Below are positions 5,189 to 48,032 of a stretch of 64,000 nucleotides of DNA, piece by piece; position 1 is the stretch's first letter; each line of letters opens with the position of its first letter. The stretch is from a virus. A program made the position numbers and the translations under genes. The DNA is taken from positions 64,001 through 128,000 of IMG/VR virus record IMGVR_UViG_3300049324_000002. One strand, given 5' to 3'. The notes beneath the pieces are model-generated. The model made no database searches. It was given only the letters and a program-made list of their open reading frames with translations, and had not been told where the DNA came from.

Positions 5189-5491
5189 TCAAGCTTGCAA
5201 GTCTTGGTTGGTAGTCAATATGGTAGCTAAGTCGGTAGACGCAGCCTCCAGCCGCTCGCGCGCCCTGACAACCAACTGCAAGTCAGCATCCTCCACAGAC
5301 GGACCCGGCCTCGAGGCTTTGAGCGCTGCCGGACCCATAAGGCGAGTCTCCACCTTCACCAACAGGCAAGACAAATCATTATAAGCATGCTGAAATCTAT
5401 CAATCTCCTGATTAAGATCTCTAAACGTCGCCATCTTCATTCCTCTTCCTAAAATCAGAAGAAGCAAGAACATCTGCAACACTATCAGCAA
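5189..5491 (-). CDS. helical-hairpin/coiled-coil hypothetical protein (start probably near 5434-5440)
   Basis: Heptad pattern; SD GGAAGAGG before internal ATG. Confidence 0.55.
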   Translation of the reverse strand: MLIVLQMFLLLLILGRGMKMATFRDLNQEIDRFQHAYNDLSCLLVKVETRLMGPAALKASRPGPSVEDADLQLVVRARERLEAASTDLATILTTNQDLQA

Positions 5492-5678
5492 GATACTTCA
5501 TGGAATCGACAACCTTAAGAAGAAGATCCTGAGTCTCAATGTTCAACGAAGGATCAGTCCTCAAAACATTATCAATGGAGTTGAGATCTATATTTAGTGC
5601 ATTTCTAGACTTACGAATAGCACTCAAAGCAACAAGTATATCCGGACTAACTACAGTAGCCATCAGTTCAATCTCCAA
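5421..5678 (-). CDS. helical hypothetical protein
   Basis: Operon overlap with neighbours. Confidence 0.55.
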   Translation of the reverse strand: MEIELMATVVSPDILVALSAIRKSRNALNIDLNSIDNVLRTDPSLNIETQDLLLKVVDSMKYLADSVADVLASSDFRKRNEDGDV

Positions 5679-24048: not shown

Positions 24049-25014
24049 TCAGCCCACCACCTCCCCATCCCGCGCGTCGTGCCCAATCAAGAACCGCTCA
24101 TCTTTGGCAGAAGACTCCAAGTCAGCAACGAACCGAACCTCAGAGCCCGTAGGCGCCGACCGCAGCTCCACAGGAGGCAACGTCCACACCCGGAAACCAT
24201 TACCCTGCACCAACATCTTGCCAGCCTTCAAACTCATAATCTTACCAGTCACCAGAGTAACACCAGACGGGATAGGCAAATACGGTGCAGGAATAGGACC
24301 ACTCACCACACGCATCACCGCAGAAACCTGACGCTCCGTCAACGTCCCACGCGTCACCAAATCCTCAGCAAGCGAGCAATAAAAGCACTTCTCAGCACCA
24401 ACACAACCCGCAGTAACATGCTCCTGAACCGTCCGGTACAAAAACCCAGACACCCGCCTATTCTGCGGAGACGCAGCCAACCACTCACGCCTCGTCTGGT
24501 CGATCTTCGTCCAACGCTCCGCAGCCTCAGCCGGAACAGCCTCCTCAGCCGCCCGCGCCTTCTTCCGCATCCCAGCCACGAACTCGCGCAACGCGCCCGC
24601 TCGAGCGGCAACCTCAGACATCTTCGCCGCACCCATCGAAGCAGCACAATCCACACCAGTCGTAATGACACCCGACTCGCCGTCAATATCAGGACGCCAC
24701 GACCACACCACCGCATAACGAATATGTGCACCACAGATGGAACACTGAGACAACGCACGACGATCACCCACCGCACGACGCGCGTACCGAGCAGCCTTCA
24801 CCTTCTGCTTCTCAGCGAACGACAACCACGCACCCGGGACACGAGCACGCGTCACCAACGCAGCAACATCATCCTTAGCGTTGCCAGCATAAAGATCAAG
24901 AACATCCACGAACACATAGTGCTCAGGGACAAGAACACCAACACGATGCTCGTCAACACGCTGCGTGGCCATCACGCCTCCCTGCCTTGGGGAAACCTTC
25001 TCGGTGTTCGTCAT
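24049..25014 (-). CDS. MTNT-start protein with CxxCG..I...G.DC zinc site
   Basis: Leaderless promoter TTGACC-N17-TAACCT upstream; CSICGAHI ... TGVDC; LTERQV motif. Confidence 0.8.
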   Translation of the reverse strand: MTNTEKVSPRQGGVMATQRVDEHRVGVLVPEHYVFVDVLDLYAGNAKDDVAALVTRARVPGAWLSFAEKQKVKAARYARRAVGDRRALSQCSICGAHIRYAVVWSWRPDIDGESGVITTGVDCAASMGAAKMSEVAARAGALREFVAGMRKKARAAEEAVPAEAAERWTKIDQTRREWLAASPQNRRVSGFLYRTVQEHVTAGCVGAEKCFYCSLAEDLVTRGTLTERQVSAVMRVVSGPIPAPYLPIPSGVTLVTGKIMSLKAGKMLVQGNGFRVWTLPPVELRSAPTGSEVRFVADLESSAKDERFLIGHDARDGEVVG

Positions 25015-32706: not shown

Positions 32707-32982
32707 TCACCTCCTCACACGCCACGAATCTCTGGCAAACACAACAACCTTGTTCTGATCAAAAGAAACCAACACCACAAACATCCCACCCGGGCCATGA
32801 CTCACAGACGAAGCAACACAAGAAATCGATTCCTCCGCAGTCCACCCCAACGCAAAAGCAGTATCAACCTGCGCCTCAACCAAACGATAATTATTGCGAA
32901 GCTGAAAATTCAACTCATCAACCCAAGACTGCGCCTCATCATCAAACTCAGGCTCCGTCACCAACCTCGAAGTGTTCGTCAT
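32707..32982 (-). CDS. paralog family C, member with MTNT start
   Basis: LVTEP....A..WV.ELN ... VLVS. Confidence 0.7.
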   Translation of the reverse strand: MTNTSRLVTEPEFDDEAQSWVDELNFQLRNNYRLVEAQVDTAFALGWTAEESISCVASSVSHGPGGMFVVLVSFDQNKVVVFARDSWRVRR

Positions 32983-33250
32983 ACACACATCCTACCGTAC
33001 ATCACACACAACGACAACCTGGGGTACAACAAAACAGGGGGTTTCGTTGGAACTAGAGCCCGAACCTACAACGAACGTTGCACCCCCAGCCACACCACAC
33101 CGGGGCTGTGTTGGAGCCTCCCGCCCTCATCCACCCGGCCCGCCAGCCACACTCCAACCCAGCATTGGCGCCGCTTGGTCACACCTTGGACAAAGCTAGG
33201 AACCGAAACAATCCAACCTAAAAACCCAGTAAAAACTGATAGAAAGGAAA

Positions 33251-33822
33251 CGGGACTCCGGCTATGGGACCCATCGGTTTTAGCGTAAAGGCAGTCAAAA
33301 TTTTAGATAAGAGAATCCCGTTCTGGAGGGGTTTCTGTGGACACCCCCTAGAACAAACATGGGGAACAGGGGTTAAAAAATGGACATGCTACAAATGCTT
33401 ATCAGTCTTTGTGCTGGACGAAGTAGAACAGGTGTGGAAACACGAAGACGGTAGACCAACAGTATGGCACAGCCTCGGAATCAAATGAGGGAGAGAGAGA
33501 AGTACAGAATACAAAATTGCAAACAGCTAAAGGACAACCACAGCGGGAGACACCCAGAGAGTTGAAGATTAAGAGCATCGTAAACCCGTACTCGTAAAAC
33601 AGAAAATATGGGACCCAACCATAAAGGACCCGTATGGGACCCATTGGAAAAATCGAAAATAGTTACTATGAAAATCGGTAGCTCCAAAACTGGGAGCGGC
33701 TGGGAGCTAGCTTGGAACTCCCAGGTCAGAAAGGAGATCGTGAATGCGTATGCATGGGACCCCGCGTGCAACTGGTGGGGGCTGATGCCACGACGCAACG
33801 GGACTCCGACGATGGGTCCCCC
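33251..33822. repeat. cluster of ATGGGACCCAT palindromes and variants
   Basis: Perfect at 33264 and 33634; variants at 33608, 33754, 33812; GGGACTCC at 33252 and 33800. Confidence 0.6.
33264..33488 (+). CDS. zinc-ribbon protein, divergent orientation
   Basis: FCGH ... WTCYKC; SD AGAAAGGA upstream. Confidence 0.55.
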   Translation: MGPIGFSVKAVKILDKRIPFWRGFCGHPLEQTWGTGVKKWTCYKCLSVFVLDEVEQVWKHEDGRPTVWHSLGIK

Positions 33823-34120
33823 TATAAGCCAAATCCTAGATACAATCCTACCACACATCGTAGAACCAGTCAAGCTAGTAGGATCACACGATTGGGTGAC
33901 TAGGCGAGGGCTAACGGAGGGCCGCGCACATACAACCCACACAGAGGGCAAAGCAAAAGCACAATGAATTCATGCATTAAAATAAAACGATTTAAAAGAA
34001 TGAACTAAAGTAATTCACACAATGCAATAGAACACACTAGGCTAATGCATTCATCACATACATGCAATGCAATCATGAATCAATCATCACACATACACAC
34101 AATGCAATAGAGTACACACA

Positions 34121-34549
34121 TCACACACGGTGACGTGCGTGCGCACGTGCATGTGCACCCCACGTAGGCTTGACCACAGACACCCACACCACCACCAACA
34201 AGACACCCACACACAACACCCGTGCCCACCACACCACCACCCACACAGGAGGCCACCACACCACCCACGTGCCCACACCCACCACCACCGTGGTCAGGCA
34301 CACCTTCACCCACACCCACCCGGCCCGCCACCACGGTGAGGACAGGGCCAACAACAGACCGCTCCCCACCGCCACCCCAGACGCCATACACAAGGGCAAC
34401 AACACCACCCTGCAGAGCAGCACCACCAACACAGGTGACCCCCACACAGCACACACCACCACAACACCCAGTACAGCCCACCAACCCACAGAAGACACAA
34501 TATGAACAACAACAATCAATTGACGTAAAGGACCACGTAAACAACGCAT
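34121..34549 (-). CDS. DUF2269-like actinobacterial membrane protein, extremely G/T-biased
   Basis: R.L.VVVHIVSSVGW ... GLLLAL.SPW....WVWVK..LT ... VSVVKP.WG. Confidence 0.7.
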   Translation of the reverse strand: MRCLRGPLRQLIVVVHIVSSVGWWAVLGVVVVCAVWGSPVLVVLLCRVVLLPLCMASGVAVGSGLLLALSSPWWRAGWVWVKVCLTTVVVGVGTWVVWWPPVWVVVWWARVLCVGVLLVVVWVSVVKPTWGAHARAHARHRV

Positions 34550-34925
34550 AGGGACGGCCCTATATAAAGGCCTGTCTAGAAAGGCCCCTTTACGGAAAGC
34601 CGGTACTTGAGGGGGGTTTACAGTCACGATTCAATCCCCTGAATTGAAGAACCCAATAACCGGGATTCCCCATACAACGAACCCAGGAGAAACAAGAAAC
34701 GGGCCTACGAAAAATCGTAGAACCCGTTCCCTGGATAAAGCCTATTTAGTTTAGATTCAGAGCCCGAAAGTTGATTTACCCTTCCTTTCCCGCCTATCCA
34801 ACCACAAACCAATTCCTGCAAGAATCGTACAAAGAAGTGCGCCCACTGCCATCCACAAAAGGAAACTAATCAAACCACTTAAGATATCCATTCTAGAAAG
34901 CCCCCTAAATTGCAATGAACGAATA

Positions 34926-35117
34926 TCAGCTAAGCGATTTAAGCGGAACCCAAGAAATGCGATTACTACCATCAAATCTCACCGGAACCGTACCATCATC
35001 GGAAACAGGCCCCATAACATAAGCCTGACCAATCTTATCCGTATCAAAACCCACATTCACATAAACTTCGGAGTCCTTGAAAATCCTGGAGGGATCGATC
35101 CATTTGGAGTTCGTCAT
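34926..35117 (-). CDS. MTN-start SH3-like protein (family D-like)
   Basis: PVSDDGTVPVRF....WVPLKSL. Confidence 0.7.
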   Translation of the reverse strand: MTNSKWIDPSRIFKDSEVYVNVGFDTDKIGQAYVMGPVSDDGTVPVRFDGSNRISWVPLKSLS

Positions 35118-35168
35118 GCTAGAAGCATAGCACCACCACGCGGACAACGCAAGTAGGTAAACCCTGTA

Positions 35169-35564
35169 TCACCCGTTCGGGTTGACGCGACCAGACTTAT
35201 CGACCACATCAGGCGTCAAGCGGAACGCACCCGCAAACTCCAACCCCGGGGGCAGCGCAGGACGGCCACGCTTCACAGACCCGCTACGTGGGGCAGAGCG
35301 GGACGGTGACGGCCTAGCAGCCACACGCGGGACACCACCCACCCGGCCCGCAGAGCGGGACACAGCAGGCACCGCAGCAGGCTCAAACAGCCCGTCAGAA
35401 ACAACCTCGTCAGCAGGCGCATCACACAGCACGTACGGCTCACCAGACACCGGAACCGCAGCGCACGGCAAGTGCGAATCAAACGCACCCACAGACGGGA
35501 AAACAACGTGGCAAGAACCACACCCCGCAGATTCAGCATTCCAGCCATTCGGATACCTAGCCAT
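35169..35564 (-). CDS. phage FDxH-type zinc-binding protein
   Basis: CGSCH..F..V.AFDSH. Confidence 0.65.
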   Translation of the reverse strand: MARYPNGWNAESAGCGSCHVVFPSVGAFDSHLPCAAVPVSGEPYVLCDAPADEVVSDGLFEPAAVPAVSRSAGRVGGVPRVAARPSPSRSAPRSGSVKRGRPALPPGLEFAGAFRLTPDVVDKSGRVNPNG

Positions 35565-36522
35565 AGTAGGTCCTACCGCCTAACCAAAGAAGCCCGCACA
35601 AACCGCCAAAGATCGTAGCCAATCAGAAAACACAAAGCAAACCACAAAGAATTATCTGAAACAACATCCCACACCGAACGAAACACATCAACAACAAATG
35701 AAACAAGCATTGCAATCACGCCACTTCGAGTTGGTCAGCAACCAAACCTGAACAAATCTTTTCCACTCCACCCTCAACCGACGACGATTCAAAGCGGCAG
35801 GAAAGGCCCCCGTCACGATTTGCGAACGTCATCGAGTAGGACCACGTAACCGCGTGCACGTAAACCGGTAACGAGTTGGGAACCAAAGTGATTGGCACTA
35901 AAACCGACCCAATCACCGCAACGATCGAAGCAAGCACACCCATGATGTTCGTCATACCCGTATGTCGGTGCAGCGACCGCAAACGTTACACCAGGGGAAA
36001 TGAAAAATTCCACACGAACGGGCGCGGTTTCAGGCCAGTCCAGGAGTAACGAAAAGCAGACTTACAACGATACACACTATTTAGATATCAAAGAATACAG
36101 GGTCTAACACCTAGCCATTCCACCAGGCCCTTTACCCAATAACAGCCCACCCGGGGGCACAGATACTCATACCGGCTAAACACACATCTCAATTCATGAA
36201 AAGCCAGTCAATCAATGATCGTGATTTGGAGATTGGGGAAGATAAACGAGTCACGATTTAGACGAAGGCAGGCCACACATCCTCACGACCATTAAAAGAA
36301 CGGAACACAGTCATCAAATCTGAATACAATGCACGAACAATGAATACATTTGCCTCCTCGTGAGACACAGAAAGGACAGGTGAATCAGCGGATTCATTAA
36401 TTCCATCAAGCACATCCATAACAGAATCGACAGAACCGGGGGCACATATAATCTGCAAAGACTGAAACATTGCAATACCTCACATCACGTGAAAGAGGAT
36501 TGAATTGGGGGGAACAATCGAG

Positions 36523-36738
36523 TCAGAACTTAGTTGCACCATAAACGGCACCGCCAAGAGCGATCACAGACAGCAAGGCGAAAGCAATCGCGTCCAACGG
36601 GTGCGGGCTCGTGATCAATGAAGTGGCATAAGCACCACTCACCATCGACACCAACAGCAAGAAGAAAGCCATCACCACATCAGGAAGCTTAGCGATTCGA
36701 GAGGACTTCGAGGACTTGGGGGATTCGGTGTTCGCCAT
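36523..36738 (-). CDS. small two-TM membrane protein (MANT start)
   Basis: Cassette promoter; two hydrophobic helices. Confidence 0.7.
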   Translation of the reverse strand: MANTESPKSSKSSRIAKLPDVVMAFFLLLVSMVSGAYATSLITSPHPLDAIAFALLSVIALGGAVYGATKF

Positions 36739-36844
36739 AAAAGAAGCATACCGTGAAACCACACACCACGCAAGTCAGTAGACATACACGATCAGGTACG
36801 TAACGTCAGGGACCCCACCCGCGATAGCGGGCAGGGCCACCAAC

Positions 36845-37495
36845 TCAAGCAGTCAGCAAACGCAGGTTCTGAGAACCCAACACATAAGCCATACCAGTCA
36901 AAAGAACACCAATCAAAAGACCGGCAAGACCATCCCACACACCAGAACCAGTAGCCATTGTCAAACTCAAACCAATCGAACCAAGAACACAACCAATCAT
37001 ATCAGCAGTGTCCTCAGATAAAACAGTTTTCGCATTCACATTAGTAGTGGTGCGAAGCAATTCGATCCAACCAATACCTCTCGAAACACGCTCCTCATTT
37101 AATGCTTTATAAGCATTCCACCAAGAAGTGGCCTCCAAACAGAACGAGATAGCCAAAACAAGAATACCAACCCCATTCAGTGAATTAGAAACCTCATCAC
37201 CGAACACTGAACGAATACCCTCGTAAATGGCGTACAAACCACCAATCACAAACATATTCACAGAAGCAACCAACGCCCAGAAGAACTGCGCCTTACTCCA
37301 ACGCTTTGAGTGCCACACACCACCCAAAAGAATCAATTCAGTGGAGCTATCAACCAATGAGTGCGCCGCTTCAGACAACATAGCGGCAGAACCAGTGAGA
37401 AAACCAATTCCCGCTTTAGCAACGAAGATCGTCGTGTTCACACCCAACGCCCAAACGACGGGGCCTGAACTGTGGGTTTCCGTGGTGTTCGTCAT
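36845..37495 (-). CDS. cation diffusion facilitator (CDF) transporter, TM domain only
   Basis: ALGVN..I..AK...GF.TGSAAMLSEAAHSLVD ... G.YAIYEGI ... EDTA ... VWDG.A...IGVLL; no cytoplasmic C-terminal domain. Confidence 0.88.
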   Translation of the reverse strand: MTNTTETHSSGPVVWALGVNTTIFVAKAGIGFLTGSAAMLSEAAHSLVDSSTELILLGGVWHSKRWSKAQFFWALVASVNMFVIGGLYAIYEGIRSVFGDEVSNSLNGVGILVLAISFCLEATSWWNAYKALNEERVSRGIGWIELLRTTTNVNAKTVLSEDTADMIGCVLGSIGLSLTMATGSGVWDGLAGLLIGVLLTGMAYVLGSQNLRLLTA

Positions 37496-38439
37496 ACAAG
37501 AAGCATAACGTAAGCACGACGACAACGCAAGTCAGTAGACATACACGATCGAGTAGTAACACAACTGGCCCCACCTACGATGCAAGTGAGGCCAATCGAT
37601 TAAACAAACCTCGGGAAATCAATTGAATAGGTCCAAGCAGGAAGCGCATGATACAATCTACGAATCACATCAAAAAGAATGGCAGTATCACCACTCACAG
37701 TATAAATAGCAGCAACAGAATTCAATTCAACCTCAAGACCAGGATTACCACCAGTAGCATCAAAGAAAACAGCTTCAATGGTGGTACTGAAATCACTATT
37801 CATATTGATTTTAATAAACGAATCCATTTGCTTAACCAATCCAAGAATGAATCACCAAGAAACGATTAACAACAATCAATCTTCAATTACAACATTACTA
37901 GAATGAATCCACGCCATGTGCCCAACAAAGTCACCTTCGCTTTCTGGCCAAACATAAAGCCAACCACCATTCTCAACAGCACCCAAAGAACACAAAACAA
38001 CGTCATCAGCATGTCCAGAAATTTCACCACTCTGACCATTCGGCTTAAACACAACATCGCATTTCAGAATAGCTCTAACAGTATCAGTGTGGTGATTCTT
38101 AAAATTAGACACAATGACCCCCAATAAGAAAATGAATCACGTAGAAACGATTACGAATTACCGACCGCCAATAGGTGAAAGACATTACGGGGCAGTCAAA
38201 ACCTTTTCAGCCGGGACATCGTCAACCGCAACACGGCCACGCAACGCACGAACCGCCCGTACGCGCACCACACCACCAGCACCGGGATAACCATCAACGA
38301 TCACCGCACGACCCGCCAGCGGCGAATCAACGCCCTCAGCCAACCGACCACGCACACCCGGGAACAACCGCGAATCACGCACCACAACCTCCAAGTTTTT
38401 GTGACTACACCCAGTACATCGTAAAACCACGCAAGAACG

Positions 38440-38781
38440 TTACGACCGAACAGCGTGAATCTGGGCAAGAACCTCATCAGACAAATCCACCACACCCATA
38501 TCTTCAAGAACAGAAAGCGCGCCCTCAATGTCACCCTCACCCGGACCATCCGCACACATCTCAATAACCGCATTCAACAAACCACGATCACCCAACAAAC
38601 GCATTCCCAAACGCGACACAACAGCGCTCACAGAAGCGTGCTCCTCCAACAAATCAGAACGACCAGCGGTTGACAATTCAATCATTGAAGTCACCGCACC
38701 ATCAAAAGCCTTTGCAAGCGTAGAATCCAGAGGACCGGCAAACACGAAATCAGCCATTTCATTTCCCTCGATGTTCGTCAT
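38440..38781 (-). CDS. MTNI-start protein, paralog of 39736-40095
   Basis: GPLD....KAFD ... RLGMRLLG.R shared by both. Confidence 0.75.
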   Translation of the reverse strand: MTNIEGNEMADFVFAGPLDSTLAKAFDGAVTSMIELSTAGRSDLLEEHASVSAVVSRLGMRLLGDRGLLNAVIEMCADGPGEGDIEGALSVLEDMGVVDLSDEVLAQIHAVRS

Positions 38782-38826
38782 GATGAAATCATAGCACAGT
38801 TGGACAGACCACGCAAGTAGGTAAAC

Positions 38827-39093
38827 CTAGCGATTCAGGGGAACGCCCGCAGCGACAGACAGAGCAGCATCACGAGCGGCGGCCAAACGATCCCGGCCAG
38901 CGGCCGTCAGGCGCACCCGCAGACGCACAACACGACCGCGACGCACCGACACCACCTCAGCCAAACCAGCGGACACCACCTCGTCAACAGTCGACAGAAG
39001 CGACGCACCCACCTCAACCAACTCAGGCTCACGACCAGCCAGCTCCAGCGCGCTGAAAACCAACCGAGGCCGGGAAAACTTTGTGTTCGTCAT
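38827..39093 (-). CDS. small winged-helix-like protein (MTNT start)
   Basis: LV.AGL.E ... RLT.AGR motif. Confidence 0.65.
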   Translation of the reverse strand: MTNTKFSRPRLVFSALELAGREPELVEVGASLLSTVDEVVSAGLAEVVSVRRGRVVRLRVRLTAAGRDRLAAARDAALSVAAGVPLNR

Positions 39094-39147
39094 GATGAAA
39101 TCATAGCATAGCTGGACCCAACACGCAAGCCGGTAAAGCAAGAATTT

Positions 39148-39633
39148 CTAGCAAACCTCAAGAGCAGAGCGCAGCACCCAACCAACACACGAAGTGCTAC
39201 CGCCCCGACGCACCCAAGTCACCCGGACCGATTCATCGTCAAGCGCACCACGCGCGCACCAAACAATTGCACCTTTACTAACACGCACATACGTATCACC
39301 ATCAGATAAAGAAACAACAGTCAACAAACGACACTTAACACGCTCAGAAGTAATGTCAGGATTAATCATTGCACCGGCTTGAGCAATTACAGTAGCGGGA
39401 CTAGAAACAGGTAATGGCTCTTTGGCATAATCACCAGTACCATTCTTACAATCACGCCTATCCTTTTGCACACATCGAACAAACAACGAAACAAGGTAAC
39501 CAATCAACAACATCAACCAAAAGACACCAGTAATCGTAAAATATGTCATGGGAGAAACGAATCCAGTAATGAATTCAAGGGCAGTGAAACCACCCCACCA
39601 AGCAATGGAATGAATCGCAATAGTGTTCGTCAT
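39148..39633 (-). CDS. membrane-anchored protein with SH3-like C-terminus (MTNT start)
   Basis: Two TM helices; KGAIV ... GWV.RSALE. Confidence 0.7.
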   Translation of the reverse strand: MTNTIAIHSIAWWGGFTALEFITGFVSPMTYFTITGVFWLMLLIGYLVSLFVRCVQKDRRDCKNGTGDYAKEPLPVSSPATVIAQAGAMINPDITSERVKCRLLTVVSLSDGDTYVRVSKGAIVWCARGALDDESVRVTWVRRGGSTSCVGWVLRSALEVC

Positions 39634-39735
39634 GCAACAAGCATAGCATAGCTGGACACGACACGCAAATCGGTAGCGACAAACAGAAGATCCCCCACCC
39701 GGGCAGGCGAGGGACCGTCTGGAGCCATAGACCAA

Positions 39736-40095
39736 CTACCCAACGGAGGCACACGCCGCGAGCACCTGAGCAGCCACAACATCGTCAAGCTCCACAATGC
39801 CCTCACTCCACAACCAACCCAGAGCGCCCATCAGCCCAAACGTAGAATCAGGGCCTGACGGAACATCACGAACCACACCCATTACTTCCTGAACCACCCG
39901 ACGCGAACCAAGCAAACGCATTCCCAAACGAATGATTGAATCTTGCAATTCCATTTCACCATCAACAATGAAATCAGGAATGGCATCGAATTCGTGCATA
40001 GCATCAAGCAACCGATCAAACGCTTTAACCATTGCCAGATCCAGCGGACCGGTCACAGACAACTTAGCCACAACGACCTCCAAGTTTTTGACCAC
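39736..40095 (-). CDS. paralog of 38440-38781
   Basis: GPLD...KAFD ... RLGMRLLG. Confidence 0.7.
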   Translation of the reverse strand: MVKNLEVVVAKLSVTGPLDLAMVKAFDRLLDAMHEFDAIPDFIVDGEMELQDSIIRLGMRLLGSRRVVQEVMGVVRDVPSGPDSTFGLMGALGWLWSEGIVELDDVVAAQVLAACASVG

Positions 40096-40109
40096 AACAA
40101 CGGGATGAA

Positions 40110-40358
40110 TCAGTACTCGAAACGAGGGAAGTCAGGAATATCAATTCCCTGCTCTTCCATGATTTCAGAAGCAACACGCAATGCGGACTTCAACTCAATA
40201 GCAGCAATAGCCACATTCCGAGCCGCACGCTTAATCGTTTCGACGTCAGTCACATCCAAGAAATCTTTACCATTCTCAGCAAGAGAATCGAGAGTGGACT
40301 CGACACAACCAGCAATGTCACTCACGGTGATGGCTGGCTTTTTCGTTGTGTTCGTCAT
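40110..40358 (-). CDS. helical hypothetical protein (MTNT start)
   Basis: Cassette promoter. Confidence 0.75.
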   Translation of the reverse strand: MTNTTKKPAITVSDIAGCVESTLDSLAENGKDFLDVTDVETIKRAARNVAIAAIELKSALRVASEIMEEQGIDIPDFPRFEY

Positions 40359-40418
40359 GCTGAAAGCATAGCATAAGCACGAACACCACGCAACCCTGCA
40401 TAACAAGATTTTCTAGAC

Positions 40419-40465
40419 AAAAGCCAGGAGCCCCCACCCACTCGGGGCAAGAGGCTCCTGGCTAA
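40419..40465 (-). terminator. cassette terminator hairpin
   Basis: AGCCAGGAGCC/GGCTCCTGGCT followed by TTTT on minus strand. Confidence 0.7.
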
Positions 40466-40466
40466 A

Positions 40467-40542
40467 CCACCTAGGTAGGGAGTCGAACCCTACTTACCAC
40501 CCCCTCACGAAGTGGCGTCCTTCCGACTAAACGACTAGGTAG
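40467..40542 (-). ncRNA. tRNA-like RNA with enlarged anticodon loop, in its own cassette
   Basis: CTACCTAG/CTAGGTGG acceptor, GTTT/GGAC D-stem, GCCAC-(11 nt)-GTGGT, GTAGGG-TTCGACT-CCCTAC T-arm; cassette promoter upstream and hairpin downstream. Confidence 0.6.
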
Positions 40543-40674
40543 CTGGTGTTTCGGTGATGTAAGAAGCATAGCACGACACAGCGAACCACGCAACCCTGTA
40601 GAGCAAGATTTTCTAGACAAAACAGAAGCGATCCCCCACCCGGGCAGGCAGGGGATCGCGAGGGACGAAGCAGG

Positions 40675-40896
40675 TCAAGAGCCATACGCACGGCGCAGCT
40701 CAGTCAACGCGTCAGCCACCTGACGGACCTGAGCGGCATAAGGCAACCGAAACCACGTGCCAGCACCCAAGTGAGCATCAACCTCAACCGGTGCCCATTT
40801 CCAAGCCAACCCAAGATCAGAGCTAGCAGTCAGCTCAGTACCATCAGAAGCGACAATGGACATTTCGCCAATCAGAGCAGATCCGGTGTTCGTCAT
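40675..40896 (-). CDS. hypothetical protein (MTNT start)
   Basis: Cassette promoter and downstream hairpin. Confidence 0.75.
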   Translation of the reverse strand: MTNTGSALIGEMSIVASDGTELTASSDLGLAWKWAPVEVDAHLGAGTWFRLPYAAQVRQVADALTELRRAYGS

Positions 40897-41143
40897 GCAA
40901 GAAGCATAGCACGACCACGTGGATCACACAACCTCGTAGATTCACACGATCGAGTAGTAACGAACCCTACCTAGACGTGCCAAGAATGAACAAAAGAAAC
41001 ACAGAAACCATGAAGACAATGAAACAAATAATAAACAATTGAGACAACGCCAACGAAAGACCAACAAACGTAAGCACCAAAGACACAAATGCAATTATCG
41101 ATAAGCTCCAGAAAACAAATAGATCAAACATAATAAACACCAA

Positions 41144-41404
41144 TCACGATGAAACAGGATCGGGAATAGAACTAGGATCAGTGCAATCAGTGATATCTGG
41201 ATTAGACACATGCAATTTATGCATTGCAGTACAAATACCATCACGCTCAGCAGGAGTTAGCTGATGAACATCAGAACTGGTAACAGGATTAGCAGGAACA
41301 GTCGGTGTAGCAGTAGGAGAACCAAACAAACCAATGAGCACAAGAATGATAACAACCATAAATACAATGTTCCTGATCTTCTTTTTCATCTTAATCCCGT
41401 GCAT
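41144..41404 (-). CDS. secreted/membrane-anchored small protein
   Basis: Basic N-terminus, TM helix, Pro/Thr linker, two Cys. Confidence 0.65.
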   Translation of the reverse strand: MHGIKMKKKIRNIVFMVVIILVLIGLFGSPTATPTVPANPVTSSDVHQLTPAERDGICTAMHKLHVSNPDITDCTDPSSIPDPVSS

Positions 41405-42475
41405 TCCTGAGCAAAGTCACTTGCTCTTCCTTATAATGGTCAACGCCATCAGAAAACTCAATAGACAAAGGCCAATCCGAACCATCGTCAATACCAATAA
41501 TCAACCCAGTATCGTCTTCACCATTCCTAGTGTAATAAACCACATCACCAACACGAAGCATAACAACTCCTAACAAAAAGAAATGGAATAAAAAATAATA
41601 GTCAAATATCAGCTAGTATGCATAATCATAGCTATTACAAATGCAACAATGACGGAAGTCAAAAAAAGAAGAAGCACACTACTACCTGAAATTTTCTTTT
41701 TCACGTTTGCCATTACAGATCCCATCTTCTTAACAAATGGAAACCGCTGACCCGGACGGCCATGGTCAACTCATCCAGGCCAACGGCTAGCTCTTTTTCG
41801 CCTCACGCATTAACGTATTGTGGTAAGGACAAAGGAATGCAGGAGGAGCATTCTCACGAACAAACAAAACAGTGCCAGGCTGATCGCAAGACTCAAGAGT
41901 GAAATCGCATTTACCAAACACCAAAAGCCTAAACCAAGCGACAAACCTAGTCCAGCTCATCACATACCACCAATCATCTCGAACAACGAAGGAAAACGAT
42001 TAACGATTTCTAGGAGCCTCGTTGAAATCAATACCTGGGTATTTAATCGCCAACGCCGCCTTAGCCTTTGCTACATGTTTAGCGTTAGACGGTTTCCAAT
42101 AAGGACCCTGAAATGTATGCACACCAGTCTTTGTCCCATAAACCACTCGAGTCTCATCATCGAAATAAACAAACCCAAATGGATAAGAATCATCACCCGA
42201 ACGATTCTCAATACTAGTGACCTCCATCAATCTCATCCCTTTCCGCATCCTTAGCAAGAATGGCACAAACCTCAGTAAGCCCACCACGCAACCGAATAGA
42301 CCAATCTAGATACTCAAACTCTTTAGATAGATCAACCATCCAAGAATGCAGAGCCTCTAAATCCATGGAGAACCGTGAATAACGAAGCCACGCATTAGGC
42401 TTATCAGGACGAGTAAAGATTGCATACACACCATCTTTATCGTCAGTGGAACTAAACGGTGAAGCATCCCGTAAA

Positions 42476-42895
42476 TCAAGCATCAGAATCACCATAAGCC
42501 GCAATACGAGCGTAGCAATCAGCGTCAATTCCTGTCTTAATCAACTCACGCTCATCATCAGTCAAGTAAGGAAATGCATTCTGAATAAGCTCGCCATCAA
42601 CCCAAGCCTGAATACGCTTAACTGGAAGCTTAAGCGTAGATGCCTTACCACACATAAGGCACGGGCGACAAACAAAGTCAGTAAGCGTTTCAACATTCAA
42701 ATCAAACACACGAGCATAGTATTCCATTTGCCCGCCGTGATCACTAACCAAAACCTTCGCAGTACCATTATACTCAGTACCGCGAGTCACCATAACAAAA
42801 AGCCATTCTTCACCACGAAAAGACACAACAACGTCATCACGCTTAACGACACGACCACTAGCATCGGTCACACGGAATTCATCCATTTTCAGCAC
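42476..42895 (-). CDS. hypothetical protein with CxxC and LIQNAFPYL..DERE.I.TG motif
   Basis: Motif common in phage proteins. Confidence 0.7.
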   Translation of the reverse strand: MLKMDEFRVTDASGRVVKRDDVVVSFRGEEWLFVMVTRGTEYNGTAKVLVSDHGGQMEYYARVFDLNVETLTDFVCRPCLMCGKASTLKLPVKRIQAWVDGELIQNAFPYLTDDERELIKTGIDADCYARIAAYGDSDA

Positions 42896-42912
42896 CCCCG
42901 GGAGAACCTATC

Positions 42913-42948
42913 CTACCGAAGGGGAAAACCCCCTGCGGTGTTCGTCAT
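42913..42948 (-). CDS. 11-aa leader peptide MTNTAGGFPLR
   Basis: Full cassette promoter, immediate stop, internal AGGGGG-TTTT-CCCCT hairpin. Confidence 0.45.
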   Translation of the reverse strand: MTNTAGGFPLR

Positions 42949-43002
42949 GCTGAAAGCATAGCATAACTGGACACAGCACGCAAGTCAGTAGACATAGAAA
43001 AG

Positions 43003-43045
43003 CAAGAGGCCCAGCTCACCGGGGCAGGCGTGAGCTGGGCCTCAG
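43003..43045 (-). terminator. cassette terminator hairpin
   Basis: GAGGCCCAGCTCAC/GTGAGCTGGGCCTC then T-rich tail on minus strand. Confidence 0.7.
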
Positions 43046-43053
43046 AGCCAACG

Positions 43054-43329
43054 TCAGCGGACGGGAGGGCAGGGCAACCCAAGATCAGGGATCTGGTAAC
43101 CAGGGACCACAGAGCGACCACAGCGGAAGCACAGAGCCTCAGGCTCAAGAGCAATCGCCGCCAACGCATCATCCAATTTCTCAAACGTGCCGACCGTTGA
43201 AGTGGGCATTTTATCAACAACACGCTCCACCACAAACAAACCAATCGACAACTCAACCAACTTACAGCTACGGAGGTAAGCGAAACGACCGCCACCCACA
43301 GTGGCATTATTCCATCTGATGTTCGTCAT
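43054..43329 (-). CDS. hypothetical protein (MTNI start)
   Basis: Cassette promoter; CFRCG. Confidence 0.7.
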   Translation of the reverse strand: MTNIRWNNATVGGGRFAYLRSCKLVELSIGLFVVERVVDKMPTSTVGTFEKLDDALAAIALEPEALCFRCGRSVVPGYQIPDLGLPCPPVR

Positions 43330-43365
43330 GCTAAAAGCATAGCATAGACAGACACAGCATGCAAA

Positions 43366-43623
43366 TCAGTAGCGGCCAGAAAACATGGAGCCGGGAGGAG
43401 GACCATAACCAAGAACACCAACCATACGGTCAAACTCGTTTTCCGCGCGGGTTTCCTCCGTGCCAGCCTCAGCCGCACGAAGCCAAGCACTCTCAGCCCA
43501 AATCTCAGCCGCCGACTCAAGCTGCTGAACCATGATCTGATCCCAACACGACCGGACCTCGTCAACCGTAGAATGACGGTGCGGAACGCCTGGGATGTTG
43601 CCACATCGAATGGTGTTCGTCAT
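43366..43623 (-). CDS. hypothetical protein (MTNT start)
   Basis: C.....H.H.TV.EVR.C motif. Confidence 0.7.
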   Translation of the reverse strand: MTNTIRCGNIPGVPHRHSTVDEVRSCWDQIMVQQLESAAEIWAESAWLRAAEAGTEETRAENEFDRMVGVLGYGPPPGSMFSGRY

Positions 43624-43678
43624 GAAAGAAGCATAACACAACCCACACACATCACGCAAGCAGGTAGAACAAGATCTT

Positions 43679-43834
43679 CTATTCGCGAGTGCGGGCACGC
43701 AAGGCGCCAAACGCAGACGTAATCAAGAACAAAATAATACCAACAACCGCCAACCACAATAAAGTCTTAAACGCAAACCCAATAACAATGCACACAGCCC
43801 AAAGAAACAGTAGAAACACGATAAGAGCGATCAT
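43679..43834 (-). CDS. small actinobacterial hydrophobic membrane protein
   Basis: LL.LW....VIGF.FK.LLWLAVVG..LFL.T..FG. Confidence 0.7.
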   Translation of the reverse strand: MIALIVFLLFLWAVCIVIGFAFKTLLWLAVVGIILFLITSAFGALRARTRE

Positions 43835-44215
43835 GTCAGTATAACGAGCACGAAACACAACCGATACGAACAGCGACCTCGGAAGGGGAACGGCACCCAA
43901 CCGAGGTCGCTGAAAGGGAAACGTCGACACGTCATCCCAATAACCTATTAAGTTCTGCCAAGACCATTCAAAAACTCATAAGCCATGGTCTCATTCAAAG
44001 CAGCAGGAGCAGTATTGGTCGGGGGAACAATAACATCAGCAGCGACCAATTCATTGTAGCATTCAATCTGCCGTGGGATCATCTCAATGAAATCGTGAGT
44101 AGCCTTACGATTACGCATCACCCGCATACGGAAAGTAAGCTCACCATTCCGAAAACAAATACGACCCTCACGAGCACAAACAATGAGAAGCCTGTAAGTC
44201 GACCCACCTCTGCTA

Positions 44216-44509
44216 TCAGCCATTACCTTTCACCTGTTCACGAATAGAACCCACAAGAACGCCAACATAATCGACATTCTCATCGCCAGCGTTATCAAAA
44301 GCATCCTGAACAGCCTGAGAAGCTACAGGATAACGAGACTCCAATTCATCAATCATCCAAGCTCGAGCCAATTTCTCAGAAGAATCAAGAGAATCGACAT
44401 CAGTATCCAAAACCAACAAAGCCTGAATCAAATTGATGTCAGAAGTATTCCTCAGAATATGATTCCGACGCGTGCCAATATTTTCAGAAGAACTCGATGT
44501 GTTCGTCAT
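44216..44509 (-). CDS. hypothetical protein (MTNT start)
   Basis: Cassette promoter; RAW.IDELE.RYP. Confidence 0.75.
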   Translation of the reverse strand: MTNTSSSSENIGTRRNHILRNTSDINLIQALLVLDTDVDSLDSSEKLARAWMIDELESRYPVASQAVQDAFDNAGDENVDYVGVLVGSIREQVKGNG

Positions 44510-44559
44510 GCAAGAAGCATAGCATGACATCGCACACCACGCAAGTCGGTAGAACAAGA

Positions 44560-44680
44560 ATCTTTAGCCCAAACGCCAGCGGACCCCTCAACCCTTGCGG
44601 GGAGGGGTCCGTGGCAGTGCGGCCCGGTAGATATTTATGACGAACACCCTTCGGGCCGCACCAGCCTAGGGAGCCTAACA
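44560..44680 (-). ncRNA. candidate antisense sRNA; loop complementary to the shared AUGACGAACAC mRNA 5' end
   Basis: GTGCGGCCCG/CGGGCCGCAC stem (44617-44661) whose loop reads GGTGTTCGTCAT on the minus strand; second hairpin at 44581-44610. Confidence 0.55.
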
Positions 44681-44682
44681 GA

Positions 44683-45009
44683 TCAGACAGACGGCAAATC
44701 AACCAGGAGGCCAAGCACCGCCCGAGAAAACCGAGCAAACGGTACGTTATTCAATCTCACACGATAGATCTCAGGACCAAAATGCTTACGGCCACCCAAT
44801 TCAATCACCTCGTAAACACGCAAGTCAAAGTCGCCAGCTTCGATATCCTCAACTCGACATGTGACAGGAAGCTCACTGTGCTTATAAAGACCATTCGAGG
44901 ACATACGAACAGCATCAGTATTCAGCGGGACAAAACCAGAATCAAGAAGAAACTCGACGCAATCCAGAGTATTTACAATGGACTTTGAGGTATTCGCTGT
45001 GTTCGTCAT
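44683..45009 (-). CDS. hypothetical protein (MTNT start), directly upstream of the candidate sRNA
   Basis: Cassette promoter. Confidence 0.75.
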   Translation of the reverse strand: MTNTANTSKSIVNTLDCVEFLLDSGFVPLNTDAVRMSSNGLYKHSELPVTCRVEDIEAGDFDLRVYEVIELGGRKHFGPEIYRVRLNNVPFARFSRAVLGLLVDLPSV

Positions 45010-45380
45010 GCAAGAAGCATAGCATCATGTCAAACCATCCGCAAGTCGGTGGTACAAAGATTTACTGGAAGGGCTGACCCGGGGCAGCGGCCACCACCCG
45101 CAAGCAGGAACGTCGCGTCACAAACACGCACGCGGCACTGGCAGAAACCACACCGACGCACCCACGGAGCCACCTGAGACGGCACCACAGCACCCACAGG
45201 AGGCTCATCGTCCAACGACAACCCCGCCAACGCCGTCGACCCCGCAAGCAACGACACCGCAGCCTGATCAGACCAACCCCAAGCAGCAAACCAATCCCGG
45301 ATAGTCAGCATTCAAAACATCTTCCCCCAAAAGGGACGACTCCGCCACCCACAAAGGTAACGGAGCCATCACAGAAAGAA

Positions 45381-45728
45381 TCAATCAGAAGGATAAATAA
45401 CAACGGAAAACGAGTAATAAGGCTCCAAACGAACCGAAACAGGAATCTGCAAAGGAAGTTCCATAGCCCTACGCAAAGCACCACGCAAAGGCATACCAAA
45501 CTCGTAATAAAGAGTGTCAGCAATCTCTCCGCTCACACCGCCAGCGGCAGCACGCAGAGCCCATTCATCAGGACCACCCTCCCAAACAATACCGAAATGA
45601 CCAGTCTCCATATAATTGTCAATCAACATAGGATGGCCGCAATCATCCATCAAGCCCTCATAACGCAACTCAATGGCTCTAAGAACGCGCTTAGCATTCT
45701 CACGGGAAACACTCTCGATGTTCGTCAT
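45381..45728 (-). CDS. hypothetical protein (MTNI start)
   Basis: IVWEGGP.EW ... EPY.S....IYP motif. Confidence 0.75.
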   Translation of the reverse strand: MTNIESVSRENAKRVLRAIELRYEGLMDDCGHPMLIDNYMETGHFGIVWEGGPDEWALRAAAGGVSGEIADTLYYEFGMPLRGALRRAMELPLQIPVSVRLEPYYSFSVVIYPSD

Positions 45729-45875
45729 GCTGTAAGCCTACCATACCTAGAAAAGGTGGTCAAGTTTGGATAGGCCGGATCTGACGTAGCCCGACACCAT
45801 AAGCACCCCAGCAAATAAATGCCTGCGATCAAGTGCTCATATAGTGCGTCCGTGCCTATACGGGTAACCATGGGA

Positions 45876-46373
45876 TCAGTCGAAGAACAGATCCACAGGA
45901 CGACCATTCAACAGCATCCGATCCTGACCAATAAATCCAGGTGAGCACGGACACATAGAACAGCCAGCATTGATACTGAACTTCCACTCATCAAACTGCG
46001 GCAAAACAATCTCAATGCCGCACTCACGTAAAGCCTCGGCAATCGTAGCCAACACACCATTGTGCTGCATGTACTCTCGAGCATCCTTAATAGACCGACG
46101 CTGGAAAGCAGCCAACACAGGATCCTTTACATCAGGATTCCGATCATTAGCTTCACGGACCAATTCAGTCTCACGATCACTAAAACCAGGAACGAAAGCA
46201 TCCAACACACCATACGCCCGAACCTTAGCCCAGTAAGAACGGCTATCTCTTCCAGAAGGAAACGGGCGAATAACCAAGTGAACCTTAAACTTCGAACCAC
46301 AAACCTGATAATGTCCATTCTTGTCGATGGAAACGATGGCGGAGCCGGTAGATGTCTCAACTGTGTTCGTCAT
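45876..46373 (-). CDS. hypothetical protein (MTNT start)
   Basis: FS..AGCSMCPCSPGFI motif. Confidence 0.75.
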   Translation of the reverse strand: MTNTVETSTGSAIVSIDKNGHYQVCGSKFKVHLVIRPFPSGRDSRSYWAKVRAYGVLDAFVPGFSDRETELVREANDRNPDVKDPVLAAFQRRSIKDAREYMQHNGVLATIAEALRECGIEIVLPQFDEWKFSINAGCSMCPCSPGFIGQDRMLLNGRPVDLFFD

Positions 46374-46427
46374 GTCACAACCATAGCATGGACGGGGGCA
46401 GCACGCAAGTCGGTAGACCAAGAATTT

Positions 46428-46769
46428 CTAGCCGATCGGCAGATGATCCTCACGCTCATCAACCAAACGGAAATGAACATTTTTCTGAAAACCAATCTCA
46501 AGTAAACGCTTACAATCCTGAGCATTCACATAAGGAATGTAATCAAACACAACATCCCTGAACTGAACATCAGCCTGGAGAATGTGATGATGTGGGTGCC
46601 AATCAAAAGAAGCTTCCTCAAGACCTATACGAGTATTAGCATCATGCCTAACTCTATAATCTTCACCATTCTCAGAAACTTCAAGAATAGAACCAGTACC
46701 CCATAAGTAAGCAAAATGGTATCGCTGACCTCGAGTACGAACACGATCGCCGACTCTTAAACCTTTCAC
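46428..46769 (-). CDS. SH3/KOW-like hypothetical protein
   Basis: LRVGDRVR ... G.I.EV....Y.V. Confidence 0.65.
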   Translation of the reverse strand: MKGLRVGDRVRTRGQRYHFAYLWGTGSILEVSENGEDYRVRHDANTRIGLEEASFDWHPHHHILQADVQFRDVVFDYIPYVNAQDCKRLLEIGFQKNVHFRLVDEREDHLPIG

Positions 46770-47041
46770 GACTCCTCCGCTTTCAGATCATAAACAATAG
46801 ACTGCCAGTCAATACGCTCAAGGTCATTAGGTGCAATCTCTTGTGCAACATGCCAAGCAGCCGTATTCTTTGGAGCTAAACGAAGAACAGCAGTCACATA
46901 TCTCTTCAATGCCTTAGGACCACCCAAAGCAACCTGACGCGCAAAATCAATCAAATCCCCATCATTACAAATCCACACACTCACATGATGGGTAGCAACC
47001 TCATCGTGCTTAAAGGAAGCATAATCTAACATATAAATCAT
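46766..47041 (-). CDS. hypothetical phage protein
   Basis: T..V..WI.ND..L ... IDW..I motif. Confidence 0.7.
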   Translation of the reverse strand: MIYMLDYASFKHDEVATHHVSVWICNDGDLIDFARQVALGGPKALKRYVTAVLRLAPKNTAAWHVAQEIAPNDLERIDWQSIVYDLKAEES

Positions 47042-47042
47042 C

Positions 47043-47309
47043 CTATCGAATAGGAACCTGATCTACAACACGAAAGTTAACACCCTCAAAACCAATAGGA
47101 TTCTGTCGTGCATGTCGAGAACACATTCTCATTTCATGAACAGTGCTCTTACCCTCACCAATAGCATAAATCCAAGATTCAGTAGAAACAATGATTGTAG
47201 CTCGAGTAGAACATCCTACCCGGGACCGGGACGATCCTCCACACAAACGACCCTCACGCCTATTCTTTTCGAGTTTATCGTGCAACTCAGCTGAAATAGA
47301 ATAACCCAT
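47043..47309 (-). CDS. putative Zn-binding protein
   Basis: C...C...A ... MCSRHA. Confidence 0.65.
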   Translation of the reverse strand: MGYSISAELHDKLEKNRREGRLCGGSSRSRVGCSTRATIIVSTESWIYAIGEGKSTVHEMRMCSRHARQNPIGFEGVNFRVVDQVPIR

Positions 47310-47642
47310 TTTACTCGTCTCCCAATTCCAGAATCAAATCGATTTGGGAACGGACCGCGCGCTCACGTTCAGTGATCCGCCAAGCCTCACGACCCAGCTC
47401 AACCAGATCCGCACGGAGCTGCGCCAACTTGCGCTGCCTGAAATCCAAGATCTTAACCTGAGTGTTCGTCATACAGGAATGATAGCATACGAGGTTGCAG
47501 GCAGTCAAGACGGTACAGAAGCACAGCAGACTGCAGGAAACACCACGTCAGGAACCCAAGCAAGAGTGCCCAGACAGAGATCGAGGCTGCCCACCACAGC
47601 GGTAGTAGGCAGCCTCGAGGGGAGGGGCAAACGGATGACAGA

Positions 47643-48032
47643 TCAGCCAAACTGGACAATACCACGACAATCCGGGCACGCCCACCCATGCGCCTCACAA
47701 CCCCGCGCAGTCCAACGCTCGTAATACTGCCAATCATCCTCAGACAAAGCAATACAATCACACCACGTTCTAGAAACATTCAATCCATCAGAAGAAGCAA
47801 TAACTTCACTCGGTGGAATGTGAATATAACGACCATCCCACACTCGGGCAGCGACAATCAGAGAAGGAGTACCAAACCTAACAACCTCAGTACCAATCTC
47901 AGCAGTCAAAACCTTTTCAGCATTCTCCCGAGCACGCGCCGCCCAATCAGCAGCCTCAGCGTAATCGTGAGCAGTCAGAGCGCTCCACAGGAGCACCGCA
48001 GGAGGCTTAGAAGTATCTGTAGCGTTCGTCAT
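47643..48032 (-). CDS. hypothetical protein (MTNA start)
   Basis: WCDC ... HGW.CPDC.GI.Q.G. Confidence 0.75.
   Translation of the reverse strand: MTNATDTSKPPAVLLWSALTAHDYAEAADWAARARENAEKVLTAEIGTEVVRFGTPSLIVAARVWDGRYIHIPPSEVIASSDGLNVSRTWCDCIALSEDDWQYYERWTARGCEAHGWACPDCRGIVQFG

Follow-up and report, generated by a model that had tools for sequence, protein, structure and literature searches.

The closest described counterparts of the locus analysed here are the CI RNA of phage P4 and the c4 RNA of phages P1 and P7. As in our proposal, these are small phage hairpin RNAs, themselves stable, in which an exposed sequence pairs with short sites in a transcript, and a block of genes is shut off. P1 c4 and P4 CI are matured by RNase P. 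Both pair inside the leader of their own operon, where they affect either termination or a single ribosome site further down. P4 CI is made by the processing of a longer transcript (PMC4825925). Phage T4 dampens many early messages with proteins: RegA and the ribosome compete for about 30 mRNAs, either at the AUG or beside it, and RegB cuts GGAG in early Shine-Dalgarno sites (PMC3014915, PMC1702504). CopA/CopT, RNAI/RNAII and Sok/hok are cis-encoded antisense pairs with one fully complementary target and a usually loop-loop contact; their lower stem is GC-rich, the upper one is weak or bulged, and an apical loop of 5 to 7 nt nucleates pairing, features that recur in the hairpin described below. 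Hairpin RNAs also occur between tRNA genes: T4 species 1 and 2 (rnaC, rnaD) and 3'ETS-leuZ are not tRNAs and are freed by tRNA processing, and 3'ETS-leuZ is a sponge for sRNAs.

Leaderless mRNAs are the norm in Actinobacteria and many archaea, and they have no 5' UTR for the binding of a small RNA or a protein. To our knowledge, little has been reported on their post-transcriptional control. Start-codon accessibility governs leaderless initiation (PMC8459731). Searching the full text of the literature, we found nothing relevant on the start motif described below or on phage sRNAs acting on leaderless mRNAs.

Here we describe a hairpin element in a phage genome of 146,490 bp (49.5% GC), within a stretch of 64,000 nucleotides that corresponds to bases 64,001-128,000 and is called the window hereafter. 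Unlike CI and c4, it is predicted to target about 20 separate leaderless transcripts, each at its extreme 5' end. The element has no sequence similarity with CI or c4 and no match in Rfam 15 at E≤1 (32-49 kb of the window and the related contigs L074 and L085 were searched), and no tyrosine (PF00589) or serine (PF00239) integrase was found in the 95%-complete genome. Like RegA or RegB, it would be a single phage factor damping many early messages at their initiation regions, but recognition would be by an RNA, with an invariant leaderless 5' end as the handle, whereas RegA and RegB are proteins acting on Shine-Dalgarno-led mRNAs. In contrast to the cis-encoded pairs, we propose a trans-encoded hairpin with a match of 11 to 12 nt to the free 5' ends of many targets. 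The predicted target array resembles the PeSL cassettes of T4-type phages, in which an early promoter, a small gene and a stem-loop are repeated; however, PeSLs are not leaderless, belong to another phage group and have no known dedicated antisense RNA. None of the compared systems is seen to share sequence with the element, and none is known to target leaderless 5' ends.

The element suggests a simple control route for leaderless mRNAs, namely, pairing with the start itself. If the proposal is true, it offers a natural, compact and programmable repressor for leaderless actinomycete genes and explains how about 20 separately promoted early genes are coordinated in large uncultured actinophages. 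It would also provide a new RNA family, with its covariance model, for phage genome annotation.

RESULTS

A minus-strand array of predicted leaderless messages

The window is strongly strand-asymmetric, with all function-assigned ORFs of at least 250 aa on the minus strand, and it contains seven tRNA genes. No close relative was found among deposited phages by blastn with 4 kb and the promoter module against 50,697 phage records. Streptomyces BE-cluster phages gave a single-site blastn match and are devoid of the cassette array, and protein searches against deposited phages gave identities of 35% at most. The relatives examined by way of the head decoration protein were high-GC and lacked the start motif. 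Outside the window, the start of the genome is repeated at 146,359; this terminal repeat, about 131 bp long, suggests that the assembly is closed into a circle or terminally redundant.

About 20 minus-strand genes had been annotated as sharing one start sequence, and counts far beyond chance bear this out. With at most one mismatch, the window contains 23 occurrences of the 11-mer start motif, where 1.34 would be expected, and 20 of these 23 are minus-strand gene starts. Genome-wide, the minus strand carries 13 exact and 21 one-mismatch copies, all within 89-128 kb. A TTGCGT-17-TATGCT promoter ends 6 nt before each minus-strand copy. Given this spacing, the predicted +1 is the A of the ATG, and the mRNAs are predicted to be leaderless (Table 1). 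Across 115 cassettes (20 from this genome and 95 from the relatives described below), each mRNA position from +1 to +11 holds about 2 bits, which exceeds the values at the -10 and -35 boxes, and conservation drops at +12/+13. No Pfam match was obtained for nine cassette-region proteins tested, including the products of both genes that flank the hairpin. Since cassettes elsewhere than at the hairpin locus end in one hairpin each, hairpin 1 is an extra element.

Other features of the array were noted. A separate promoter class, GGTAnnAT, was considered and dropped, as some cassettes use GGTAnnAT too. At 40541-40591 (minus strand), a cassette-type promoter with its TATGCT box near 40565-40570 drives tRNA-Ser (40467-40541) and no protein gene; the transcript would start with ATCACCGAAACACC, a degenerate, non-AUG form of the shared start. 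In the promoter of cassette 40358, the minus-strand sequence of the spacer is GGTGTTCGTGCT (plus strand, 40376-40386). This near copy of the anti-start is probably due to chance, that strand being G/T-rich.

A hairpin with a loop antisense to the shared start

The initial annotation had located the only full plus-strand copy of the start motif in the 25-nt loop of a perfect 10-bp stem, in the 3' UTR of a cassette gene and just before a terminator-like hairpin. We confirmed each of these points. The exact sequence ATGACGAACACC occurs once on the plus strand of the whole genome, at 44637-44648, in the 25-nt loop between the arms GTGCGGCCCG (44617-44626) and CGGGCCGCAC (44652-44661). When minus-strand G.U pairs are counted, the stem extends to 12 pairs (44615-44626/44652-44663). 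Hairpin 1 sits between the stop codon of gene 44683-45009 and hairpin 2. The 135-nt region folds at -72.7 kcal/mol, with a z-score of -6.0 relative to shuffled sequences. Searches revealed no second copy of the hairpin in the 146,490-bp genome and no plus-strand promoter at the hairpin locus.

Hairpin 1 differs from a terminator in that it has neither a loop of 3 to 8 nt nor a U tract right after the stem, and hairpin 2 resembles an intrinsic terminator weakly here and clearly in the relatives. A small RNA is predicted to start near 44664-44665. Its 3' end likely lies in the tail past hairpin 2, which would give a length of about 100 nt. The loop of hairpin 1 contains UUCG, which we take to fit the YUNR U-turn motif.

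Table 1. Predicted features of the hairpin locus and of its putative targets, in window coordinates
Feature	Position	Strand	Basis or remark
Target array, 19 predicted leaderless starts	32972..48032	-	Motif and promoter
Array starts 1-10	48032, 47472, 46373, 45728, 45009, 44509, 43623, 43329, 42948, 40896	-	
Array starts 11-19	40358, 39633, 39093, 38781, 37495, 36738, 35955, 35117, 32982	-	
Outlying target start, 321-aa gene	25004..25014	-	Motif, promoter, duplex energy
Upstream leaderless cassette gene, 108 aa; 3' UTR of its mRNA would hold hairpin 1	44683..45009	-	
Candidate -10 box TAGGCT after TGT	44672..44677	-	8 nt before the stem, 5 nt past the upstream stop codon
Hairpin 1, 12-bp stem including terminal G.U and 25-nt loop; conserved family core	44615..44663	-	
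Anti-start 12-mer GGTGTTCGTCAT, complements mRNA +12 to +1	44637..44648	-	First 11 nt invariant in 10/10 copies
Predicted 7-nt apical loop CGUCAUA, likely seed	44636..44642	-	CGUCA pairs with target UGACG (+2 to +6)
Hairpin 2, GC-rich 10-bp stem, terminator-like as at other cassettes	44580..44611	-	
Tail past hairpin 2, CUGGCGUUUGGGCU, weak U tract	44566..44579	-	
Next cassette promoter TTGCGT-17-TATGCT; leaderless start ATGACGAACAC at 44509	44499..44557	-	

Relatives that carry the hairpin

Among 5.8 billion proteins, the product of gene 44683-45009 has one relative, encoded on the 1.5-kb contig L074. The intergenic region of L074 is 97.1% identical to that of the window, compared with 85.3% for the adjoining coding sequence, and both changes in the stem are G-C/G.U switches. 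By scanning metagenomes with the promoter and start module, we obtained contigs (61-63% GC) on which many starts share one strand; in the case of L085, the cassette strand also contains the anti-start. The genes flanking the hairpins of the window and of L085 have no homology, and L085 differs from the window by a 3-nt indel and third-position changes. A coding reading of the conserved core, on either strand, was dropped, as further copies keep the 11-mer only. Six more lineages were reached via a HAD-like early protein of L085 (L164/165, L166, L167/168, L290/291, L292 and L293).

Altogether, 10 copies of the hairpin were found in 8 lineages, i.e., that of this genome and 9 copies elsewhere, in 7 other uncultured phage lineages. 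The latter have GC contents of 60-69%, compared with 49.5% here, and each carries 7 to 20 same-strand cassettes with the shared start. Loss of the element from relatives that keep the MTNT cassettes would have spoken against the first proposal, and it is kept: all seven lineages with enough sequence have one or two copies. Every contig with at least seven cassettes harbors one or two same-strand copies of GGTGTTCGTCA, and only contigs of 1-3 kb are without it.

Three IMG/VR DNA-pattern scans, using the promoter plus start, an arm plus the anti-start, or the loop core, yielded single chance matches only. A scan of prokaryote genomes gave 74 matches, which were rejected, all lying in coding regions (e.g., ABC-transporter and dehydrogenase genes). 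We also rejected a candidate at 2630-2680 of contig L171, with the loop core and a 10-bp A/T-rich stem, which lies inside a gene of a 44% GC contig without cassettes. It represents a useful false-positive example for future models.

A conserved structure on the cassette strand

The loop 11-mer GGUGUUCGUCA is invariant in all 10 copies. It forms the sole invariant block of a MAFFT alignment and is followed by near-invariant A residues. In eight of the copies the stems are uninterrupted, with 12 to 14 bp and arms that share little sequence, and those of L085 and L292 are bulged. The loops of hairpin 1 measure 19 to 29 nt, except for one of 51 nt, and the stem is not followed by a U tract. In alignment A5, which is model-fitted, all 80 cells are paired, with compensatory double changes at 9 of the 12 pairs; the perfect stems are visible without the model. 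None of 500 shuffles matched this pairing, and slid registers pair at 38-47%.

Eight cells are G.U on the cassette strand and hence A.C on the opposite strand. Covariance models R1 and R2 score the window hairpin at 79.3 and 68.5 bits, and the cassette strand reaches 79.3 bits versus 15.9 for the reverse strand. Both the G.U cells and these strand scores place the structure on the cassette-strand transcript. Trained on three copies, a covariance model recovered seven at E<0.01, and the best E value among 100 control loci of IMG/VR with a chance loop core was 0.12. No conserved reading frame was detected at the element on either strand. The stem covariation, the G.U pairs found on the cassette strand only, the -10 box of its own and the terminator all agree with the small RNA first proposed for the minus strand.

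In all 10 copies, the probability that CGUCA is unpaired is 0.96-1.00, and it lies in an apical loop of 5 to 7 nt. GGUGUU is found in a weak, G.U-rich inner helix in all 10 folds, and the minimum-energy fold of L085 departs from the family structure. The initial view of a loop that displays the anti-start single-stranded thus stands for CGUCAUA, but GGUGUU would be masked by the predicted inner helix.

Two genomic layouts

Seven copies (window, L074, L085, L166b, L290, L292 and L293; b-type) all have a TANNNT box preceded by GGG or TGT, 3 to 8 nt before the stem. All seven also have a strong second hairpin with a T-rich tail after hairpin 1, the tails being clearer in the relatives than here. 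Judging from these signals, the layout would be that of a small-RNA gene which is self-contained and about 90-110 nt long. As the preceding cassette gene is not followed by a terminator, read-through transcripts should also carry the b-type hairpin.

The three other copies (L164, L166a and L167; a-type) are found 1 to 2 nt after tRNA-Pro(UGG) and are followed by tRNA-Leu(UAG), with no upstream cassette gene and no adjoining terminator. The processing of tRNAs by RNase P/Z is established biology. Because they are flanked by tRNAs, ordinary tRNA processing would release a fragment of 68-93 nt from these copies. They are placed like T4 species 1 and 2 and 3'ETS-leuZ, which is a likeness of position alone, and the parallel with the RNase P maturation of P4 CI and P1 c4 is suggestive only. 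The origin of the small RNA in one of the regulated cassettes, as first put forward, fits the 3'-UTR position in this genome, but it is too narrow, since the majority of the copies come with a promoter of their own or form part of a tRNA operon.

The tRNA block itself, Pro-hairpin-Leu-Ile-Leu and so on, is syntenic in the early cassette region of L164 (5253-5767), L166 (735-1508) and L167 (3511-4062).

Match between the loop and the message starts

The loop is complementary to positions +1/+2 to +12 of 13 exact and 8 one-mismatch starts in this genome and of 95 starts in the relatives. In the 10 copies, the RNA is invariant exactly over the complement of +2 to +12 and variable beyond. The base opposite mRNA +1 may be U, A or G, and in most lineages the RNA would therefore cover just part of the AUG. 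Comparing folding and duplex energies with the cassette 5' ends had been proposed as a check, and the outcome favours pairing: duplexes of the loop with the 21 cassette 5' ends range from -16.6 to -23.2 kcal/mol, whereas 322 other ORF starts average -9.0. The cost of opening the hairpin is 3.7-7.2 kcal/mol, compared with -20.4 kcal/mol for the duplex.

Substitutions at +2 to +11 are A>G or C>U, and hence wobble-compatible, in 22 of 25 cases, and the four-fold degenerate site +6 shows no variation among the 115 cassettes. This pattern supports pairing in a suggestive manner only, because transitions are common, the cassettes are related and phages devoid of the hairpin also keep ACG.

Complete actinophage contigs of 50-60 kb use ATGACGAACA as a leaderless start at three to five promoters, and no antisense hairpin was found in them. 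The IMG/VR contigs L032, L038 and L040 (52-60 kb), from other actinophage lineages, have this start at three to five genes, likewise without the hairpin. The start motif is thus widespread, and it apparently pre-dates the hairpin RNA or is independent of it. Given its presence in hairpin-less phages, the RNA more likely exploits an existing handle, and conservation of the targets needs no RNA. The early suggestion that the RNA explains the MTNT codons shared by the cassettes is weakened for the same reason. The promoters of those three phages differ from the cassette promoters here, and some of their ATGACGAACA genes are divergent.

Proposed mechanism

Both ends of the argument, the conserved structure with its invariant anti-start and the matching boundaries of conservation in the messages, are observed, as are the promoter and terminator signals; from them we infer an RNA that accumulates, pairs in trans and has repression as its outcome. 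We estimate at roughly 0.58 the probability that it is a trans-acting antisense RNA masking the 5'-terminal AUG of the leaderless cassette mRNAs. A non-coding RNA of about 100 nt would run from the -10 box through hairpin 1 to terminator hairpin 2, and it would also be present in the 3' UTR of the 45009 cassette. Its exposed CGUCA would nucleate pairing on the free 5'-terminal UGACG of the leaderless mRNAs, and pairing would zip through the weak inner helix to form a duplex of 11 to 12 bp over +1/+2 to +12. As leaderless mRNAs need an accessible 5' AUG for ribosomes, this duplex should block initiation of all the approximately 21 cassette messages together, and it would probably hasten their decay. 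As a result, the early cassettes would be subject to feedback or switched off together at a given time.

In this manner, a single small RNA could probably damp about 20 genes simultaneously. The chances seem even to us that this phage small-RNA family uses the invariant 5' 11 nt as a global translational off-switch for a 20-gene regulon. The same even odds apply to what this implies: the RNA would be the equivalent of the T4 proteins RegA and RegB, and leaderless initiation would have its first dedicated antisense regulator.

Some observations count against antisense action. The 5' half of the anti-start is masked in the predicted folds. One RNA gene would face about 21 promoters, and a stable RNA would therefore be required. 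The RNA gene is embedded in the very array that it would silence, which poses a timing problem. The variable base opposite +1, the deviating fold of L085 and the retention of the start motif in hairpin-less phages weigh on the same side. Finally, the 22 wobble-compatible substitutions out of 25 could stem from transition bias and shared ancestry.

Alternative explanations

The same RNA and the same pairing might serve immunity or exclusion, as with P4 CI or P1 c4, rather than a lytic timer. The targets would then be the early cassettes of related phages that enter the cell, those of the phage itself when it persists in a carrier or plasmid state, or host or competitor messages that are leaderless and share the 5' end. 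Other actinophages share the start, which makes cross-targeting possible, and the location of a-type copies in tRNA operons recalls the maturation of P1 c4 and P4 CI. Against this, the RNA lies inside a lytic-type early array, and neither a tyrosine nor a serine integrase was found in the 95%-complete genome. The latter result speaks for a lytic role, although a plasmid-like state is conceivable. We regard an immunity role as unlikely, if the best of the alternatives.

It is a little less likely again that the loop is a protein-binding RNA site. Such a site might act as a decoy or an assembly point for an RNA-binding protein of the phage or the host, or it might mimic the template strand (+1 to +12) and so bind RNA polymerase; its complementarity to the mRNAs would then be indirect. 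In sequence, the loop does equal the template strand of each cassette over the initially transcribed region, and the A-rich 3' side of the loop is conserved too. However, the invariant stretch stops where mRNA conservation stops, as predicted by base pairing and not by a protein site. Moreover, no candidate protein co-occurs with the hairpin, whose neighbour genes vary among lineages.

The hairpin might instead act only in cis or as a sensor, as it shares a transcription unit with a cassette that starts with the motif and directly abuts the terminator. It would pair with the 5' end of its own 45009 mRNA, or it would bind abundant abortive or short 5' fragments made at the 20 promoters and thereby tune the adjoining terminator. 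This appears improbable, since the a-type copies lie between tRNAs, without upstream cassette gene or adjoining terminator, and the b-type copies own a -10 box.

We consider it very improbable that positions +1 to +12 of each promoter form the operator of a DNA-binding regulator and that the hairpin locus is a further, inverted one. The motif does surpass the -10 and -35 boxes in conservation, and asymmetric repeated operators exist, such as the stoperators of mycobacteriophage L5. Nevertheless, a site in duplex DNA needs no inverted repeat, yet the stem covaries perfectly, with G.U pairs that are A.C on the other strand, and the exact placement between tRNAs points to RNA.

Chance, an ordinary extra terminator or a plus-strand leaderless mini-gene (MTNTLRAAPA) deserves next to no credit: the plus strand is A/C-rich, with the exact 11-mer estimated at about 0.1 per genome from base composition, but conservation in eight lineages refutes all three, the 19- to 29-nt loops without a U tract after hairpin 1 do not suit a terminator, and the mini-gene, a reading that the initial annotation had set against its own, is ruled out by the replacement of its ATG by TTG or CTG in 6 of 10 copies, by downstream 'codons' that are the variable stem and by the lack of a plus-strand promoter at the locus.

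Early genes near the hairpin in the relatives

In L085, the gene straight after the RNA and hairpin 2 (5263-5574) has a Shine-Dalgarno sequence, GAGGAGG, and no leaderless start. The terminator before it may be leaky. This gene would not come under the predicted control. In the high-GC relatives, the cassette arrays contain a conserved early gene pair, in which an ADP-ribosylglycohydrolase gene (PF03747) is followed by that of a HAD-like protein (L164, 8858-10735; L166, 8518-10747; L167, 6297-8166; L085, 2459-4452). Both are leaderless MTNT cassettes, and the pair may represent anti-defence or host-takeover chemistry.
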